DNA of 64,000 bases, taken from assembly GCA_963749975.1 (NCBI GenBank), contig CAVVOZ010000014.1:961-64960 (forward strand). Direction: 5' to 3'. Positions within the stretch are counted from its first letter, which is position 1. Every line of letters starts with the position of its first letter. Position numbers and translations under genes: made by a program. The notes below the pieces were generated by a model. The model was not told where the DNA came from and did no database searches. It was given only the letters and a program-made list of their open reading frames with translations. The DNA is from an uncultured Candidatus Rokubacteria bacterium (lineage in GTDB: Bacteria > Methylomirabilota > Methylomirabilia > Rokubacteriales > DASRDR01). Below are positions 1,002 to 6,503 of this stretch, piece after piece.

Positions 1002-2425
1002 TCACCGACCCAGCGGCGGGTCCCCGAGCACCTCGCGTGCGGTGCCGAGCACGCGTTCGGCGGCTCGTGCGATTCCGAGCAGCACATCGTCCGTCCCGCG
1101 CGCGCTCGAGAGCTGCAGCCCGATCGGCAGCCGCTCGGGTCCTTGCCGACCGGCAGGGTGATCGACGGGAAGTCCCAGAAGTTCATGAGCATCAGGTTGC
1201 GGCCGATCGCCATAGTCCGACTGCGAATAGCCTTCTTCCAGGGCCTGGACCTCCTCGGCCGCGCGGTGCTGTAAGCCGTGTGGTCGGCGTCGCGTATCAC
1301 ATCCAAGCCCTCGAGCGCGCGTGCGCCCGAAGCCGTGCCGGCTCGATCTCCCGCAAGCGTTTCAGATACTCCTGAGTATCGATCGCCCCGTAGGTCGCCA
1401 GCCTCGACCACACGGTCGGATCCAGAGCTGTCGATCCACTCGGGAAACTCGCTGCGCGACCAGCGCGTACCCTTCGGGCACGCCAACCCCGCCGTTGGCC
1501 ATCCACTGCGCGCCTCCGTGGCCTCGGGGAAGACAGTGGGCGACCAGCACGGCACCCTTGCTTTCGAGCAGCCTGAAGGGCCCGACGAACCGTTTCGACG
1601 ATACCCGGTCCACATTCGTCGAAGAAGTGATGCTCGGGTATACCGATCCTCAGGCCCGTGAGCGTGCGGCCGCGGTGCTTCCCAGCAGTTCCGGTACGAC
1701 GATGCGATGCGGATCGATCGCGGCAAAACCGACAATCAAATCCTCGACCGAGCGAGCGAGGAGACCGGTCGTGTCGAGGGTGGGGGATAAGCGGCGGTGC
1801 ACCCCCTGTCGGCCACCGGCCAATGGAGGTGCGCAGGCCCACTGTCCCGTGAAAGCAGCGGGGGCGCGAACCGACCCACCCGCGTCGCTCCCGAGCGCCC
1901 ACAGGCAACTGCCCTCCCACAAGGAGACGCCCGCGCCGGAGCTGGAGCCACCGCTCATGCGGTGAGAAGAAGCATCCCAGGGGTTGCGGGGCGCGCCCCA
2001 GTGCTTGTTGACCCCGATGACGCCAAAGCGAAGGGCACCGTGTGCGACTTGCCGGGGAAGACGCACAGTTGGCGTCGCAAGCTCCCGACGACTACGGTCC
2101 TTCCGTTTCGTACTTCGCCGGCAGCGCTCGAGACGTGCCGCAATAGATCGGCGTGCCGCGCAGACCCGAATACATCCTTGATCGACATCGGCAGGCCTTG
2201 GGCTGGCCCGAGTCCGCGCCGACTTTGAACGCCGCGTCGGCGGCTTGAGCCTGTGCGCGGGCTGTGGGCCCCAACCACAGCTTGTAGGCGTTCAACGCAT
2301 CGCCGTAGCGTCGATGCCGCTGCGTCTGCGCCTCATCGAACAGGAGATCGGCGGCACGGACGGCGCCCTCGCGAAGAGCGGTAATGAGCCTCGAGCGCGG
2401 AGCTGGTGAAAATGCTGATGTTCAG
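1002..2425 (-). pseudogene. Amidase-signature family protein (GatA-like), multiply frameshifted
   Basis: Motifs spread across frames: GLPMSIKDVF, GKSHTVPFA, NPWD..GGSSSGAG..ALGSDAGGSVRAPA, SPTLDTTGLLARSVED, NFWDFPSITLP. The 5' limit is approximate. Confidence 0.8.
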
Positions 2426-2427
2426 GC

Positions 2428-2462
2428 CGCCCCCTCTCCCCGACCCTCTCCCGCGAGGGGAG
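2428..2462. repeat. REP-like palindromic element (CCCTCTCCC...GGGAGAGGG family) interrupted by IS110
   Basis: ccccctctccccgaccctctcccgcgaggggag. Joining to the flank beyond 3688 restores the hairpin ccctctccc-gcgag-gggagaggg. Confidence 0.75.
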
Positions 2463-2479
2463 AGCAACCGTGTTAGCTG

Positions 2480-3433
2480 TCAAGCGCCTTGGGGATTCCA
2501 ACGGGTGCTGGTTTTGATCATGGCGTTCATGATCGTAAGCAGCTTGCGCATGCAAGCGACGATCACTACCTTTGGCGCCTTGCCGGTGCTCTTGAGGCTG
2601 GCAGCGAAAGCCTTGATCACCGGATTGCAGCGTATCGCGCTCACCGTGGCCATGTACAACACGCTGCGCACGTCAGCGCGCCCACCCCAGATGTGGCGCT
2701 GCCCGCGGTACTTCCCGCTATCATTGTTCAGAGGAGCGATGCCCACCAGTTTGGCGATCTCGCGACGGCTCAGCCGCCCGATCTCAGGGCAGCGGCTGAG
2801 CATAGAGCGGCTGGTAATCTCGCCCACCCCAGGAATGCTCAGCAACAGATCGTCTTTGACCCGCCACGCATCCGAGCTACGCAAGCGTGTACCCAGATCG
2901 ATCTCGATCGACTTGATGCGCTTGTCAAGCCATCCGATGTGCGCCTTCACGCTCTTGGCCTGCACCTTGGAGGCCCCTTGAAGGCGCAGAGTCTCTTGCA
3001 CCCGCATCTCAACGAGCTGACGACGACGAGTCACCAGATCATCGAGCTCCTGAGTCAACGCCTCTTTCATCGGGCGCGCCGCGGGGCGGATCGCCCGCCC
3101 AAAGCCGCACAGCACGTGCGTATCGATGCGATCGGTCTTGGCCAACTGCCCGCTGGCTTTGGCGAAATCACGCACTTGGCGCGGGTTGACTACCGCCAGA
3201 CACAGCCCTCGCGCCGCCAGCTCGCCCGCCGCGCGTGTCTCCAGTCCTCCGGTGGCCTCCATCACAATCAGTGTGGGCGCAAGCTCGCTCACACGCGAGC
3301 ACAGCGCTTTGATGCCCTCATCGTCATTGCCAACCTGAAACGATTCCCCCGGCGGCTCGATTCGTACATCGAGCGTGTCCTTGGAGACATCTACGCCAAC
3401 AAACACTTCTACTTTGCTCTCGCTCATACCCAT
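2480..3433 (-). CDS. IS110 family recombinase/transposase (DEDD RuvC + Tnp domain)
   Basis: VGVDVSK, MEATG, AKTDRID, SIPGVG, SGKYRG motifs; 317 aa and intact. Confidence 0.97.
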   Translation of the reverse strand: MGMSESKVEVFVGVDVSKDTLDVRIEPPGESFQVGNDDEGIKALCSRVSELAPTLIVMEATGGLETRAAGELAARGLCLAVVNPRQVRDFAKASGQLAKTDRIDTHVLCGFGRAIRPAARPMKEALTQELDDLVTRRRQLVEMRVQETLRLQGASKVQAKSVKAHIGWLDKRIKSIEIDLGTRLRSSDAWRVKDDLLLSIPGVGEITSRSMLSRCPEIGRLSRREIAKLVGIAPLNNDSGKYRGQRHIWGGRADVRSVLYMATVSAIRCNPVIKAFAASLKSTGKAPKVVIVACMRKLLTIMNAMIKTSTRWNPQGA

Positions 3434-3585
3434 CCTTGCATCAATGCGGGCTCAAGGCCCAAGCAACCGTTCGGGTTGAAAGTGAGACTGGGCGCATCGC
3501 GACCTGCTCTCCCACGGGCTTGGTGTCCCCAGGGGGTATCGTGCTGATGCGCCCAAACCTTTGTGAGGCCATGGCTTCATGAACA
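3434..3585 (-). ncRNA. Bridge RNA of the IS110 element
   Basis: 5' hairpin (3564-3579). Target-binding loop closed by gggcgcatc/gatgcgccc (3490-3498/3546-3554) with guides ATACCCCCT and GGGAGAG. Donor-binding loop with guides ACGGTTGCT (3462-3470) and ATGCAAG (3435-3441) matching the IS ends. 5' end approximate. Confidence 0.85.
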
Positions 3586-3736
3586 ATTCGCTTCCAGCAA
3601 ACTGCTCGTCGACCACTATGCTCGCCGTTGTCTGCAAGCTCCATCGCCTCGTTATCTATCATGGTCCCCACGCCAATCAATATACAAGGGGAGCACATTC
3701 ACCTGCATGGTCACCCTCTGTCGGCGAGGCGGCGCA

Positions 3737-4381
3737 TCAATGCCGGACCTCATCCAGAAACCGCACCACATGCGAATTGAACGCGTCGGGCGCTTCGAGA
3801 TTGCTCAGATGTCCCACGCCCGGCAGCACCACGCTGCGTGCGCCGGGAATGGTGCGCGCCATGAACTCGTGCACTTTCACACACGGTGCATCGTGTTCGC
3901 CGACGATGAGCAGCGTTGGAACGCGCATCTCGCGCAGCTTCTGCTCGAGCGAATAGATCGTCGGCCGCTTCGCCAGCACTTCGCGCGCGGTATGCATGAT
4001 GCCGCGCGCGCGGTGCGTCATCAGGCACGAGCGAATGAAGCGTTCGCGGTCTGGACCCTGCTGGATGTAGCTCGCGAACAGCGGATTGGCGCAGGCCAGA
4101 TCGGCGAATGCTTCGACGCCGCCGCGCTCGGCGGCATCTGCGTAGCGATGCGCGCCGGCCACCCAGTCGGCTGTGTTGTCGGATCCGGCACCGGTGTCCG
4201 CGATGATCAGAGCCGACACGCGCTCGCGATTCTCCAATGCAAAATTCAGCGCGATGTTGCCGCCCATGGAGAGCCCGCCCAGTGCCGCGCGCTCGATCCG
4301 CAGATGATCCAGCAGTCCGGCGAGATCCGCTACCGCGATCGGCTGCGAATAAGCGCTCGGTTCCTCCGGCGCTTCCGTTAC
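3737..4381 (-). pseudogene. Alpha/beta hydrolase, N-terminus missing
   Basis: GLSMGG nucleophile elbow, PTLLIVGEHD, GHLSNLE. Homology stops abruptly upstream of TEAPEEPSAYS and there is no HG or D.RG.G motif. Confidence 0.8.
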
Positions 4382-4562
4382 GGGCTCCCCGCTGCTCGCG
4401 GCGCCGGGGCCAAGGCGGCTCCTGCGAGCGCTCGGAATGGGTCGCCCGGCCCTCCGCGCTCCCGCCTCTTGACAAGGCTCTCCGTGCGGGTTTCCCTCGT
4501 CTCGGCGCCCGGACGGGCGCCTCGCAGACCCAGACGGTCCAATTGTTGCTGGAGGAGCGCGC

Positions 4563-6503
4563 ATGACGCCCGCGATCGACGTGCACACCCACATGTTGAA
4601 CCGTGACTGGCTGGAGCTGCTGCGCGCCCACGGCCGGCCCCGCTACGAGCTCCGGAAGAGCCTGGATGCGCCCGAGGGCATCTTTCTCGACGGCGCCCCC
4701 TTCATGACGCCTCAGCCGGGACACTTCGACTACCCGTATCGCATCCGCCAGATGGACGAGGCGGGCGTCGACCTGGCGATCGTCTCCCTGACGTGCCCGA
4801 ACGTGTACTGGGGCGGCCGCGACGTGAGCCTCAAGGCCGCGCAGGTCGTCAACGACGACATGGCAGGCGCTCAGCTCGCGTATCCGTCGCGCATTCGCTG
4901 GCTCTGCTCGCTCCCCTGGGAGCACCCCGAGGTGGCCGTGCCCGAGCTGGCGCGAGCCTGTGACCGGGGTGCGGTGGGCGTCATGGTGCTGGCGAACATC
5001 GCCGGCCGGCCCCTCACCGACCCGCTGTTCGGGCCGGTGTGGGCGGAGATCGACCGGCGCGCGCTCCCGGTCCTGGTGCATCCGACGGCGCCGCCGGGAA
5101 CGCCCGACATGGCACTCAGGGAGTTCAACCTGATCGCGAGCATCGGTTTCATGTTCGACACCAGCCTCGCGATCGCGCGTCTCATGTTCGACGGCTTCCT
5201 GGACCGCTACCCTGACGTGAAGCTGATCGTCTCGCACGCGGGCGGAGCCCTCCCGTACCTCGTCGGGCGACTCGATCAGTGCTTCGACAAGATGAACGCC
5301 GCCCGGACGAAGACGTCGACGCCTCCGGGCGAGTACATGCGGCGGCTCTACTACGACTCCGTCACGTACCGGTCGGACGCCCTTGCCATGTGCATCGACG
5401 TCGGCGGGGCCGATCGCGTGCTCTACGGCTCCGACTATCCCCACAACATCGGAGACATGAAGGGCTGCCTGGCCCGGGTGGACGCGCTGCCGGCCGGGCA
5501 GCGGGACGCCGTCCGCGGCCGCAACGCCCAGCGGCTGTTCGGCTCTGTAGGCTCGCCGGCCCCGACCCCCGTGCGAGTGCTCGTGATGGGCGCCGGCGCC
5601 GTGGGTGGCTTCTACGGCGCGGCGCTCGCCGAGCGCGGCCATGCGGTCACGTTCGTCGCCCGCGGCGAGCACCTCGACGCGCTGCGAGCGCGCGGTCTCA
5701 CGATCCGGAGCGGGGGCCGCTCGACGGTCCTCCACCCGGTCCACGCCGTCGCCGACCCGGCCGAGGTGGGCGACCGATTCGACCTCGTGCTGTTCACCGT
5801 CAAGGGATACGACACGGAGCCGGCGGCCCTCGGCCTCCGGCCGGCGGTGAGCGCAGAGACCACCGTCCTCACGCTCCAGAATGGGGTCGAGAGCGGGGAC
5901 CGTCTGGGCGCCGTGCTCGGGGCGGATCGGGTCCTGGTCGGGACGACGCTGATCGCGACGACCATCGCCGAGCCGGGAGTCATCGATCAGACGAACCCCA
6001 TCCGGCGTATCGAGCTCGGCGAGCCGTCCGGCGAGGTCACCCCGCGCCTGGAGTCGGTCGCGGCCGCCCTCAGGGACGCCGGAGTCGAGGTCCGCGTGAC
6101 GACCGACGTCCGCCGGGCGGTCTGGGAGAAGTTCATCCGCCTGGCGCCCGGCGCGACGCTCGCGACCGCGTGCCGGGCGACGATCGGCCAGGTCCGGAGC
6201 AGCCCGGAAGGCGCCGCGCTCTACCGCGCCCTCATCGCCGAGACCGTCGCCGTCGGCCGGGGGGCCGGCGCGACCCTCCCCGCCGACGCCGTCGAGACCG
6301 CCGTCGCCCTGATCCAGACTCTCCCCGCCGACATGAGGACCTCGATGCAGCTCGATTTCGAGCGCCGTCGGCGGGTCGAGCTGGAGGAGATCACCGGCGC
6401 TGTCGTCCGACTGGGACGCCGACTGGGCGTGTCCACGCCCACCTACGACGTCGTCTACGCTGTCCTCCGGGTTCGGGCCGCGGCCTTCGGCGGTCTGGGT
6501 TGA
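4563..6503 (+). CDS. Amidohydrolase_2 (ACMSD-like; ~4563-5550) read in frame with 2-dehydropantoate 2-reductase PanE/ApbA (~5571-6503)
   Basis: IDVHTH, VHP, SHAGG, GSDYPH, then GAGAVG, LFTVKGYD, LQNG, WEKF, TSMQLD, ELEEI. RBS GGAGGAG. Confidence 0.85.
   Translation: MTPAIDVHTHMLNRDWLELLRAHGRPRYELRKSLDAPEGIFLDGAPFMTPQPGHFDYPYRIRQMDEAGVDLAIVSLTCPNVYWGGRDVSLKAAQVVNDDMAGAQLAYPSRIRWLCSLPWEHPEVAVPELARACDRGAVGVMVLANIAGRPLTDPLFGPVWAEIDRRALPVLVHPTAPPGTPDMALREFNLIASIGFMFDTSLAIARLMFDGFLDRYPDVKLIVSHAGGALPYLVGRLDQCFDKMNAARTKTSTPPGEYMRRLYYDSVTYRSDALAMCIDVGGADRVLYGSDYPHNIGDMKGCLARVDALPAGQRDAVRGRNAQRLFGSVGSPAPTPVRVLVMGAGAVGGFYGAALAERGHAVTFVARGEHLDALRARGLTIRSGGRSTVLHPVHAVADPAEVGDRFDLVLFTVKGYDTEPAALGLRPAVSAETTVLTLQNGVESGDRLGAVLGADRVLVGTTLIATTIAEPGVIDQTNPIRRIELGEPSGEVTPRLESVAAALRDAGVEVRVTTDVRRAVWEKFIRLAPGATLATACRATIGQVRSSPEGAALYRALIAETVAVGRGAGATLPADAVETAVALIQTLPADMRTSMQLDFERRRRVELEEITGAVVRLGRRLGVSTPTYDVVYAVLRVRAAAFGGLG
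6111..6503 (+). repeat. Copy 1 of a 393-bp diverged direct repeat (3' end of panE-like gene)
   Basis: Aligns by eye without gaps to 7670-8062. Confidence 0.85.

Follow-up and report, generated by a model that had tools for sequence, protein, structure and literature searches.

The locus described here raises two linked questions: whether the insertion sequence (IS) that it holds is guided by an RNA of its own and, if so, whether the guides in that RNA account for the site at which the element now lies. The element occupies positions 2463-3688, on the minus strand, of a 64,000-nucleotide stretch of contig CAVVOZ010000014.1 from an uncultured Candidatus Rokubacteria bacterium (the whole of this stretch is referred to here as the window). 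We put a probability of roughly 0.9 on the reading of 2463-3688 as an intact insertion sequence of the IS110 family (IS110 group) with the mode of action of IS621. As such, the element adds a natural example to a known bridge-RNA system and does not represent a new kind.

Anatomy of the element

The ends of the element were read directly from the sequence, all on the minus strand. The left flank reads ...GAATGTGCTCCC up to a CT core at 3687-3688, after which the left end begins TGTATATTGATTGG..., with TGTAT at 3686-3682. The right end (2463-2471) closes with ...GCGCTTGACAGCTAACACGGTTG, in which the left donor half ACGGTTG (2471-2465) precedes a second CT core (2464-2463), and the right flank follows as CTCCCCTCGCGGGAGAGGGTCGGGGAGAGGGGGCGG, with CTCCC at 2462-2458. 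A CT core is present on either side of the element, and there are no terminal inverted repeats, as neither end (TGTAT... or ...ACGGTTG) is an inverted form of the other. The left target half, TGCTCCC, lies outside the element at 3689-3695, and its positions 5-7 (CCC) match the left target guide described below. Within the ends, ~250 nt without a credible gene are followed by an open reading frame (ORF) at 3433-2480. An earlier note on this DNA had given 2463-3688 as the element; this interval does contain both ends, but it counts in both CT cores, so that the mobile unit, as a circle, would be 1224 bp. Identical ends (CT-TGTAT... and ...ACGGTTG-CT) were found in the nearest copy, locus L012 of another metagenome-assembled genome (88% nucleotide identity), and across the relatives, in which CT closes every register-resolved left guide and every left flank.

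The recombinase gene (2480-3433, minus strand) could encode 317 aa from the ATG at 3433 or 315 aa from the ATG at 3427. The second ATG, which lies behind GGAnGGG, is the start common to the relatives and the protein is therefore probably 315 aa long. Both an N-terminal DEDD RuvC-like domain and a C-terminal Tnp domain are present, as matches to PF01548 (DEDD_Tnp_IS110; 1.7e-20, 73.8 bits, cut-off 29) and PF02371 (9.6e-18, 64.8 bits, cut-off 21.3). The only solved relatives in the PDB by phmmer were ISCro4 (9t56, 1.3e-37) and IS621 (8wt6, 3.1e-33, over about 300 residues). The composite active site of IS621 is made up of D11, E60, D102, D105 and S241, with the conserved G242 steadying the S241 loop (PMC11208158). 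In the alignments of the recombinase with IS621 and ISCro4, the same residues face one another at the D of GVD, at the E of MEATG, at both D residues of KTDRID and at the S-G of NDSGK (window versus solved relatives: vgvD/IGID, mEATG/IEATG, KTDriD/KTDTVD and dSGk/ESGS), the PDB chain numbering being read as an offset from the residue numbers of the structure paper.

Four guide strings can be read in the left end, in the same order and polarity as in IS621, with the two target guides in a first loop and the two donor guides in a second. The left target guide (LTG), ATACCCCCT at 3539-3531, matches the target TGCTCCCCT at 5 of 9 positions (5-9), and the right target guide (RTG), GGGAGAG at 3513-3507, matches the reverse complement of CT plus CTCCC at all 7. 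The left donor guide (LDG), ACGGTTGCT at 3470-3462, agrees with the right end plus core at 9 of 9 positions. The right donor guide (RDG), ATGCAAG at 3441-3435, agrees with ATACAAG at 6 of 7, the odd position being a G opposite T, and hence pairs with CTTGTAT through six Watson-Crick pairs and one G:T. These four match figures had been put forward from the sequence by the earlier note, and our script arrived at the same values. Across the relatives, the LDG reads AC[AG]GTTGC[CT], and in most rows the RDG has GCAAG opposite CTTGT (wobble included), the exceptions being ACAAG or GCTAG. The LDG ends in CC where the right end has CT in many relatives (e.g., L019, L022, L014, L027, L034 and L040-L052); this mismatch at the second core base is common in the clade, while the window LDG has a perfect CT.

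The window also appears, from its sequence, to carry the handshake guides of IS621, a feature of which the earlier note had made no use. In IS621, a handshake guide consists of the two bases that lie 3' of the RTG or of the RDG; once strands have been exchanged, it has to pair with positions 6-7 of the non-cognate DNA, and it must be unable to pair with the cognate one (PMC11208158). In the window, the predicted handshake guide of the target-binding loop is CA (3505-3506, minus strand), which can pair with the TG at donor positions 6-7 (in ACGGTTG) but not with the CC at target positions 6-7. That of the donor-binding loop is GA (3433-3434, minus strand), whose G fits target C7 and not donor G7, and whose second base, A, does not fit target C6. 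Position 7 of the target is C in 97% of the guide-flank pairs of the relatives.

A putative promoter is split between the two ends. Its -35 hexamer, TTGACA, lies in the right end (2478-2483, minus strand), where it overlaps the stop codon TGA (2482-2480), and its -10 hexamer, TATATT, lies in the left end (3679-3684, minus strand); the two are 17 nt apart when the ends are joined through one CT, so that a promoter would be formed only across the circle junction. Among 45 distinct right-end/left-end pairs, TTGACA (with at most one mismatch), the 17-nt spacer and TAnnnT are kept together in 40, and a TAnnnT hexamer is found at the -10 place in 44. A scan of 2380-3780 in the integrated state found no sigma-70-like site. 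IS621 has a natural sigma-70 promoter with its -35 in the joined right and left ends (PMC11208160), and the predicted junction promoter of the window element fits this description. The string GCTTGAC at the -35/stop-codon place is kept in most relatives.

Bridge RNA and guides across relatives

Folding the RNA and searching with a covariance model, as the earlier note had proposed, gave a centroid fold in which the loops are seen and a model, built by us, that matches most relatives. The predicted left-end transcript begins with a variable 5' leader (3556-3678, minus strand) that shows large indels in comparison to L012, and the length of the left end among relatives ranges from about 150 to 314 nt. 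The target-binding loop (3489-3555, minus strand) consists of an outer stem, an internal loop with the LTG and RTG, and an inner stem. The donor-binding loop (3428-3476, minus strand) appears in the centroid fold as an outer stem (ACCC/GGGT), the LDG, an inner stem and the RDG, and it overlaps the ribosome-binding site and the first ATG.

Relatives were gathered in a scan of one genome per species, which yielded 80 loci with 46-92% protein identity to the recombinase. The 150 nt upstream of the gene in 23 relatives align with the window and contain two variable strings within conserved sequence, and RNAalifold on the MAFFT alignment gave a long outer stem with compensatory changes. The covariance model (R1; 24 sequences, 20 pairs) has one match in 77 of the 81 sources, each directly upstream of a recombinase gene; in the window the match spans 3434-3578 and scores 135.8 bits. 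Over 60 distinct rows, 95.7% of cells pair and compensatory changes occur at 17 of the 20 pairs; no shuffle out of 500 reaches any of five pairing measures, and slid partners pair at 36-46%. This 60-row alignment was fitted to R1 and is hence biased towards structure, and the independent MAFFT/RNAalifold result agrees with it. Compensatory changes are found at 12 of the 13 pairs of the target-binding loop's outer stem (94.6% of cells paired) and at 3 of the 4 pairs of the donor-binding loop's inner stem (97% paired), whereas the outer stem of the latter is conserved in the alignment without covariation. Pairing of AACC with GGTT within the LDG, and a further GC/GC pair close to the RDG, had also been proposed by RNAalifold; both were unsupported by variation and were removed from the model.

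The guide strings fall in the two internal loops of these conserved and covarying stems, and were not the product of a free search. They also follow the flanks. When one pair was taken per guide, 27 distinct RTGs matched their flanks at a mean of 4.33 of the 5 non-core positions, in comparison to 1.53 when permuted, and 28 distinct LTGs matched at 4.61 of 7, in comparison to 2.59; in neither case did any of 5000 permutations reach the observed value. Because the relatives are kin, the permutation figures overstate independence, and the variety of the guides is the stronger argument: unrelated RTGs with 7/7 matches include CCTCAAG, CCCACAG, CGCAGAG, ACGTTAG, GACTCAG, GGCTCAG and GGATGAG, among many. 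Misses exist as well (e.g., L063, L051 and L075 at 4/7), and for some of these the right-end motif may have picked the wrong place. Together with the aligned catalytic residues and the covarying stems, the agreement between the variable loop strings of the relatives and their flanks upholds the IS621-type bridge-RNA layout that had first been proposed for this element.

The match rates of LTG positions 1 to 9 over 36 unique pairs were 0.22, 0.33, 0.47, 0.83, 0.75, 0.97, 0.97, 1 and 1, against permuted rates of 0.18, 0.26, 0.27, 0.25, 0.29, 0.61, 0.82, 1 and 1, and no other register (shifts -3 to +3) gave pairing for positions 1-3. The guides of this clade thus effectively comprise LTG positions from about 3/4 to 9 (about 6-7 nt) and 7 nt of the RTG. 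This bears on the earlier suggestion that the element had tolerated distal mismatches in its left guide. Since positions 1-2 never track the target in the clade, where they are at chance in every register, two of the four mismatches in the window say nothing; what stands of the suggestion is a real mismatch at position 4, where the guide has C and the target T, and a partial one at position 3. Pairs with 5/9 LTG matches are not rare among relatives (L015, L030, L065, L045 and L056). L012, which has the same ends and lies at the same kind of hairpin as the window element, offers a small case of direct covariation: at LTG position 5, guide and target both have C in the window and both have T in L012.

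In the mechanism that we propose, transcription of the left end would yield a bridge RNA that guides the DEDD/Ser recombinase. Of its two loops, the donor-binding one (LDG ACGGTTGCT, RDG ATGCAAG) would recognise the joined right-end/left-end junction of the excised circle, and the target-binding loop (LTG ATACCCCCT, RTG GGGAGAG) would recognise ...CCCC-CT-CTCCC..., with the two-nucleotide handshake guides aiding strand exchange at the CT core. The joined ends would build a strong promoter (TTGACA-17-TATATT) driving the RNA and the recombinase from the circle only. The present copy would have integrated at the 5' shoulder of a hairpin of the repetitive extragenic palindromic (REP) type, with a perfect right half-site and a left half-site with one clear (position 4) and one partial (position 3) mismatch. 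We infer in the same way that the element is transcribed, forms a circle and is active at the present day.

Target hairpin, other copies and rival explanations

The right target half CTCCC is part of a hairpin that extends through the right flank (2426-2462, minus strand). The core and right half-site form its 5' arm, CTCTCCC (2464-2458), followed by the loop CTCGC (2457-2453) and the 3' arm GGGAGAG (2452-2446); a second GGGGAGAGGGG arm follows, to about 2430. In sibling-genus genomes, 33-40 nt of the right flank recur at 85-94% identity in several contigs, and the pattern CTCTCCC-N3-9-GGGAGAG was counted 137, 81, 29, 23 and 5 times in five of these genomes, against 0-1 for controls. The same pattern occurs twice in the element's own genome and 0, 3, 0, 1 and 0 times in five same-genus genomes of 95-99% completeness, and a BLAST search of the right flank against the own genome gave nothing beyond chance-level matches of 13-18 nt. 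With 2 hairpins here in comparison to 5-137 in sibling genera, the hairpin is of the REP family by sequence and is not a repeat in the host; an intergenic palindrome in many genome copies is what it amounts to in the five sibling-genus genomes, but not in the host. The target hairpin is a member of a real REP-type family that is nearly an orphan in its host. The assignment to a REP family made from the window is therefore borne out for the sibling genera, in which the hairpin family is abundant, but not for the own genome, with only two such hairpins. The difference between genera is sharp, G001, G002, G003, G019 and G020, of five sibling genera, being rich in the hairpin and G000, G009 and G013-G016, of the element's own genus, nearly without it (0-3 per genome).

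Hairpins of this kind are formed by 19 of 63 distinct right flanks of relatives, nearly all with GGGAGAG-like guides, and relatives with the RTG GGGAGAG and a readable right flank lie mostly at the same kind of hairpin. By hand count, GGGAGAG is the RTG in 18 of 77 aligned RNAs. The target specificity ascribed to the element is thus distinct from that of IS621, as had been claimed, but is not particular to the window copy. The element lies in one of the only two such hairpins of its own genome, while at other places in that genome the 10-mer CCCCTCTCCC occurs 11 times without an insertion. In one sibling-genus genome (G001:C15:72483-73738; L002, L006), a distant IS110 relative (about 70% nucleotide identity over parts) lies between hairpins of the same pattern at 72483-72503 and 73720-73738.

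The RTG GGGAGAG is identical to the 3' arm of the targeted REP hairpin, and the bridge RNA would accordingly compete with or replace that arm on the 5' arm. It is conceivable, though we hold it to be rather unlikely, that this clade divides its targeting differently from IS621 (6-7 nt on the left and 7 on the right, in comparison to 9 and 4) and that hairpin structure gates the choice of target besides sequence. If true, this would be natural needle-in-a-haystack, structure-assisted targeting in a host without the repeat family.

Other copies were sought in several collections. Among 20 other same-family genomes only distant IS110 relatives were found (66-73% identity over parts), and the PLSDB plasmids, searched in distant mode, held no close copy (best 65.8% identity over 62% of the query) and gave no name for the IS. 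Part of the stretch is contained in 20 of the 21 sequencing runs listed, and four runs were examined, all as contigs. Two left-end contigs, one identical over 81 nt and the other about 94% alike, leave the window sequence at 3691, 3 nt outside the left end; this is directly after CCC-CT, the part specified by LTG positions 5-9. In the second of these, the 18 unaligned letters spell a left half-site to which the LTG of the window would be matched at positions 4-9. One right-end contig follows the window through 36 nt of the hairpin and then diverges, another diverges after 6 nt, and short contigs carry the hairpin alone, with other sequence at the element's place. Within the limits of contig data, this goes against the outcome that the earlier note had named as refuting its reading, in which other copies would have different ends or insertion sites unrelated to the guides. 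A contig from an RNA library covers 3293-3691 and is not evidence of transcription. The unoccupied hairpins in the soil metagenome contigs have ...CTCC or ...TTCC before the CT core, so that left-target position 5 is T, in better agreement with the LTG of L012 (T) than with that of the window (C).

The own genome (5.3 Mb, 71% G+C) has three PF01548 genes, with an R1-type RNA only beside that of the window element. The other two IS110-family transposase genes, G000:C25:12181-12612 and G000:C37:385696-386112 (50 and 45 bits to PF01548), lack such an RNA and so presumably belong to other subgroups. End motifs occur in duplicate in several relatives. In L053, the left-end start TGTATGTTAA is present twice, at a distance of 67 nt, and the right-hand hairpin is repeated; in L017, CTTGTAT is present twice, at a distance of 10 nt; and in L066 the duplicated motif is that of the right end. 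These may be tandem or nested insertions.

A number of points weigh against an IS621-like element directed by its own guides. An Rfam 15 scan of 2300-3900 (E up to 10) returned no matching family, the best hit (sX15, 22 bits versus a cut-off of 55) being weak and unrelated, which is why the evidence for the RNA was built from relatives. The minimum-free-energy fold of the 153-nt RNA alone was no better than that of shuffles (z = 0.35) and lends no support of its own; we take this value as uninformative because most of the RNA is meant as an open guide loop. The single-sequence fold of the whole left end gave z = -2.57, which is likewise uninformative by itself. A syntenic empty site was not found in the genomes of the relatives, in which only window 4396-4700 and the hairpin match, because the flanks are not syntenic there. 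The contigs of the four runs came with no joints reported, and neither an RNA nor a transcription start or a circle junction was seen. The element is single copy in its own genome, where no second copy was found, and a single copy offers no sign of recent activity in this host. The guide-flank counts depend on ends that were set in the relatives by the donor motifs only (CTTGTAT on the left, AC[AG]GTTG[CG][TC] on the right), independently of the target guides. Loci with two candidate left ends (L017, L053 and L055) were excluded from the LTG counts, and with the exclusion of loci cut by contig ends and of LTG registers that were not resolved, the counts rest on 49 LTG pairs (36 unique) and 67 RTG pairs (32 unique) from 77 rows.

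The left guide itself is the remaining point, and it is the main ground for a rival explanation, namely that the element is a bridge-RNA IS whose insertion was not directed by its present LTG, either because guide and flank have drifted or because an off-target half-match was led by the right half-site and core. In the window, LTG positions 3 and 4 mismatch the flank, and the match rates of these positions across pairs are 47% and 83%, respectively; IS621 is described as tolerating mismatches poorly (PMC11208160), and a 2026 preprint reports half-match insertions for IS621. Moreover, two 11-mers (CCCCCTCTCCC) that fit the guide perfectly at positions 4-9 plus the RTG side (RT) are unoccupied elsewhere in the genome. 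Against this, 5/9 pairs recur among the relatives listed above, and the covariation at position 5, seen on comparing the window with L012, speaks for a choice of the site by the present guide. We regard this explanation as unlikely, yet it is the one to which we would pay most heed among the rivals.

Far less probable, in our view, is that the right-end hairpin belongs to the mobile unit or moved together with it, so that the true boundary lies beyond 2463. A hairpin carried as a passenger would explain a REP-type hairpin in a genome otherwise without the family (2 hairpins, with 5-137 in the sibling genera), the similarity between the window and L012 runs about 40 nt past the right end, and up to 36 nt of the right flank recur beside other copies in metagenome contigs. 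Yet the LDG fixes the boundary at ACGGTTG-CT; what comes after the right CT in relatives whose RTGs differ is unrelated sequence that agrees with the RTG of each; one contig leaves the window flank only 6 nt past the right end; and element-free hairpins occur in relatives and in metagenome contigs. The last rival, that the string matches are due to chance in G+C-rich sequence and that the left end is only an untranslated leader, has in its favour the base composition of the genome and the frequency of GGGAGAG, which alone turns up in 8,416 (4.2%) of the 200,000 shuffled versions of the 253-nt left end. Of these versions, 203 contain the 9-mer and only 5 contain both, the strings coincide in position with the loops of covarying stems, and the guides track the flanks across relatives; on these three grounds we reject the chance explanation, to which we attach almost no weight.

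The element lies next to fragments of genes. An alpha/beta-hydrolase ORF (3737-4594, minus strand) lies 49 nt upstream of it, with a Pfam Abhydrolase_1 match that starts at profile position 45. The first 70 residues of this ORF look non-homologous, and same-genus genomes align to window 4396-4700 at 77-92% identity and not to the rest of the ORF, which may be a truncated gene at a variable spot. Downstream of the element are remnants of an amidase: one 138-aa ORF (1650-2066, minus strand) matches Pfam Amidase at profile positions 106-206 of 445 only, and three further minus-strand ORFs overlapping 995-2295 have no Pfam hit. The amidase gene (995-2400 generally) looks fragmented, as a pseudogene or through assembly frameshifts. 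For the genome itself the setting is ordinary, i.e., one intact IS in an intergenic hairpin beside gene fragments.

Comparison with known bridge-RNA systems

Natural bridge-RNA recombinases are under development as programmable DNA-insertion tools. The clade of the window element would offer an orthologue in which the right guide is naturally long (7 nt), the effective left guide is short, the handshake guides are intact and the junction promoter is clear, and with it dozens of relatives whose guides and targets are directly readable, including at least 27 distinct right guides. Such a comparative set would be useful for deriving rules on guide length and for judging whether a hairpin at the target contributes to specificity.

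The IS1111 group (seekRNA) belongs to the same superfamily of RNA-guided DEDD recombinases and has its guide RNA downstream of the recombinase gene, whereas the RNA of the window element lies upstream of the gene, in the left end. ISCro4, which we take to be the IS622 of a 2025 preprint, is the closest relative of the recombinase among solved structures; the two proteins share their domains and their catalytic residues align, the likeness considered here being that of the proteins. ISPpu10 and ISPpu9, IS110-family elements of Pseudomonas putida, resemble the window element in that they insert into repeated intergenic palindromes (10.64898/2026.03.19.712850; PMC12288879). For ISPpu10, the target stem-loop is described as adding specificity beyond base pairing (10.64898/2026.03.19.712850). 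That stem-loop is described as a GC-rich 5' extension of the target, whereas in the window the core and right half-site are themselves the 5' arm of the hairpin.

The closest comparison is with IS621 of Escherichia coli (PDB 8WT6), whose four guides all include the CT core (PMC11208160). Both elements have a DEDD RuvC-like domain and a Tnp domain with a Ser-Gly loop, and a CT core (PMC11208160, PMC11208158). Both also have a left-end RNA with target- and donor-binding loops and handshake dinucleotides 3' of the RTG and RDG, with the LTG and LDG read as top strand and the RTG and RDG complementary to it, a promoter split between the right and left ends, and a target inside a REP element. The two differ in that their proteins are only distantly related (3e-33), in that the RTG of IS621 is 4 nt (extendable to 7) in comparison to 7 nt in the window element, and in that the LTG has 9 effective positions in IS621 and only about 3/4-9 in the window clade; some orthologues are described as carrying longer RTGs than IS621 (PMC11208160). 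Finally, the target of IS621 is ATCAGGC-CT-AC, whereas that of the window element, as read from its sequence alone, would be CCCC-CT-CTCCC.

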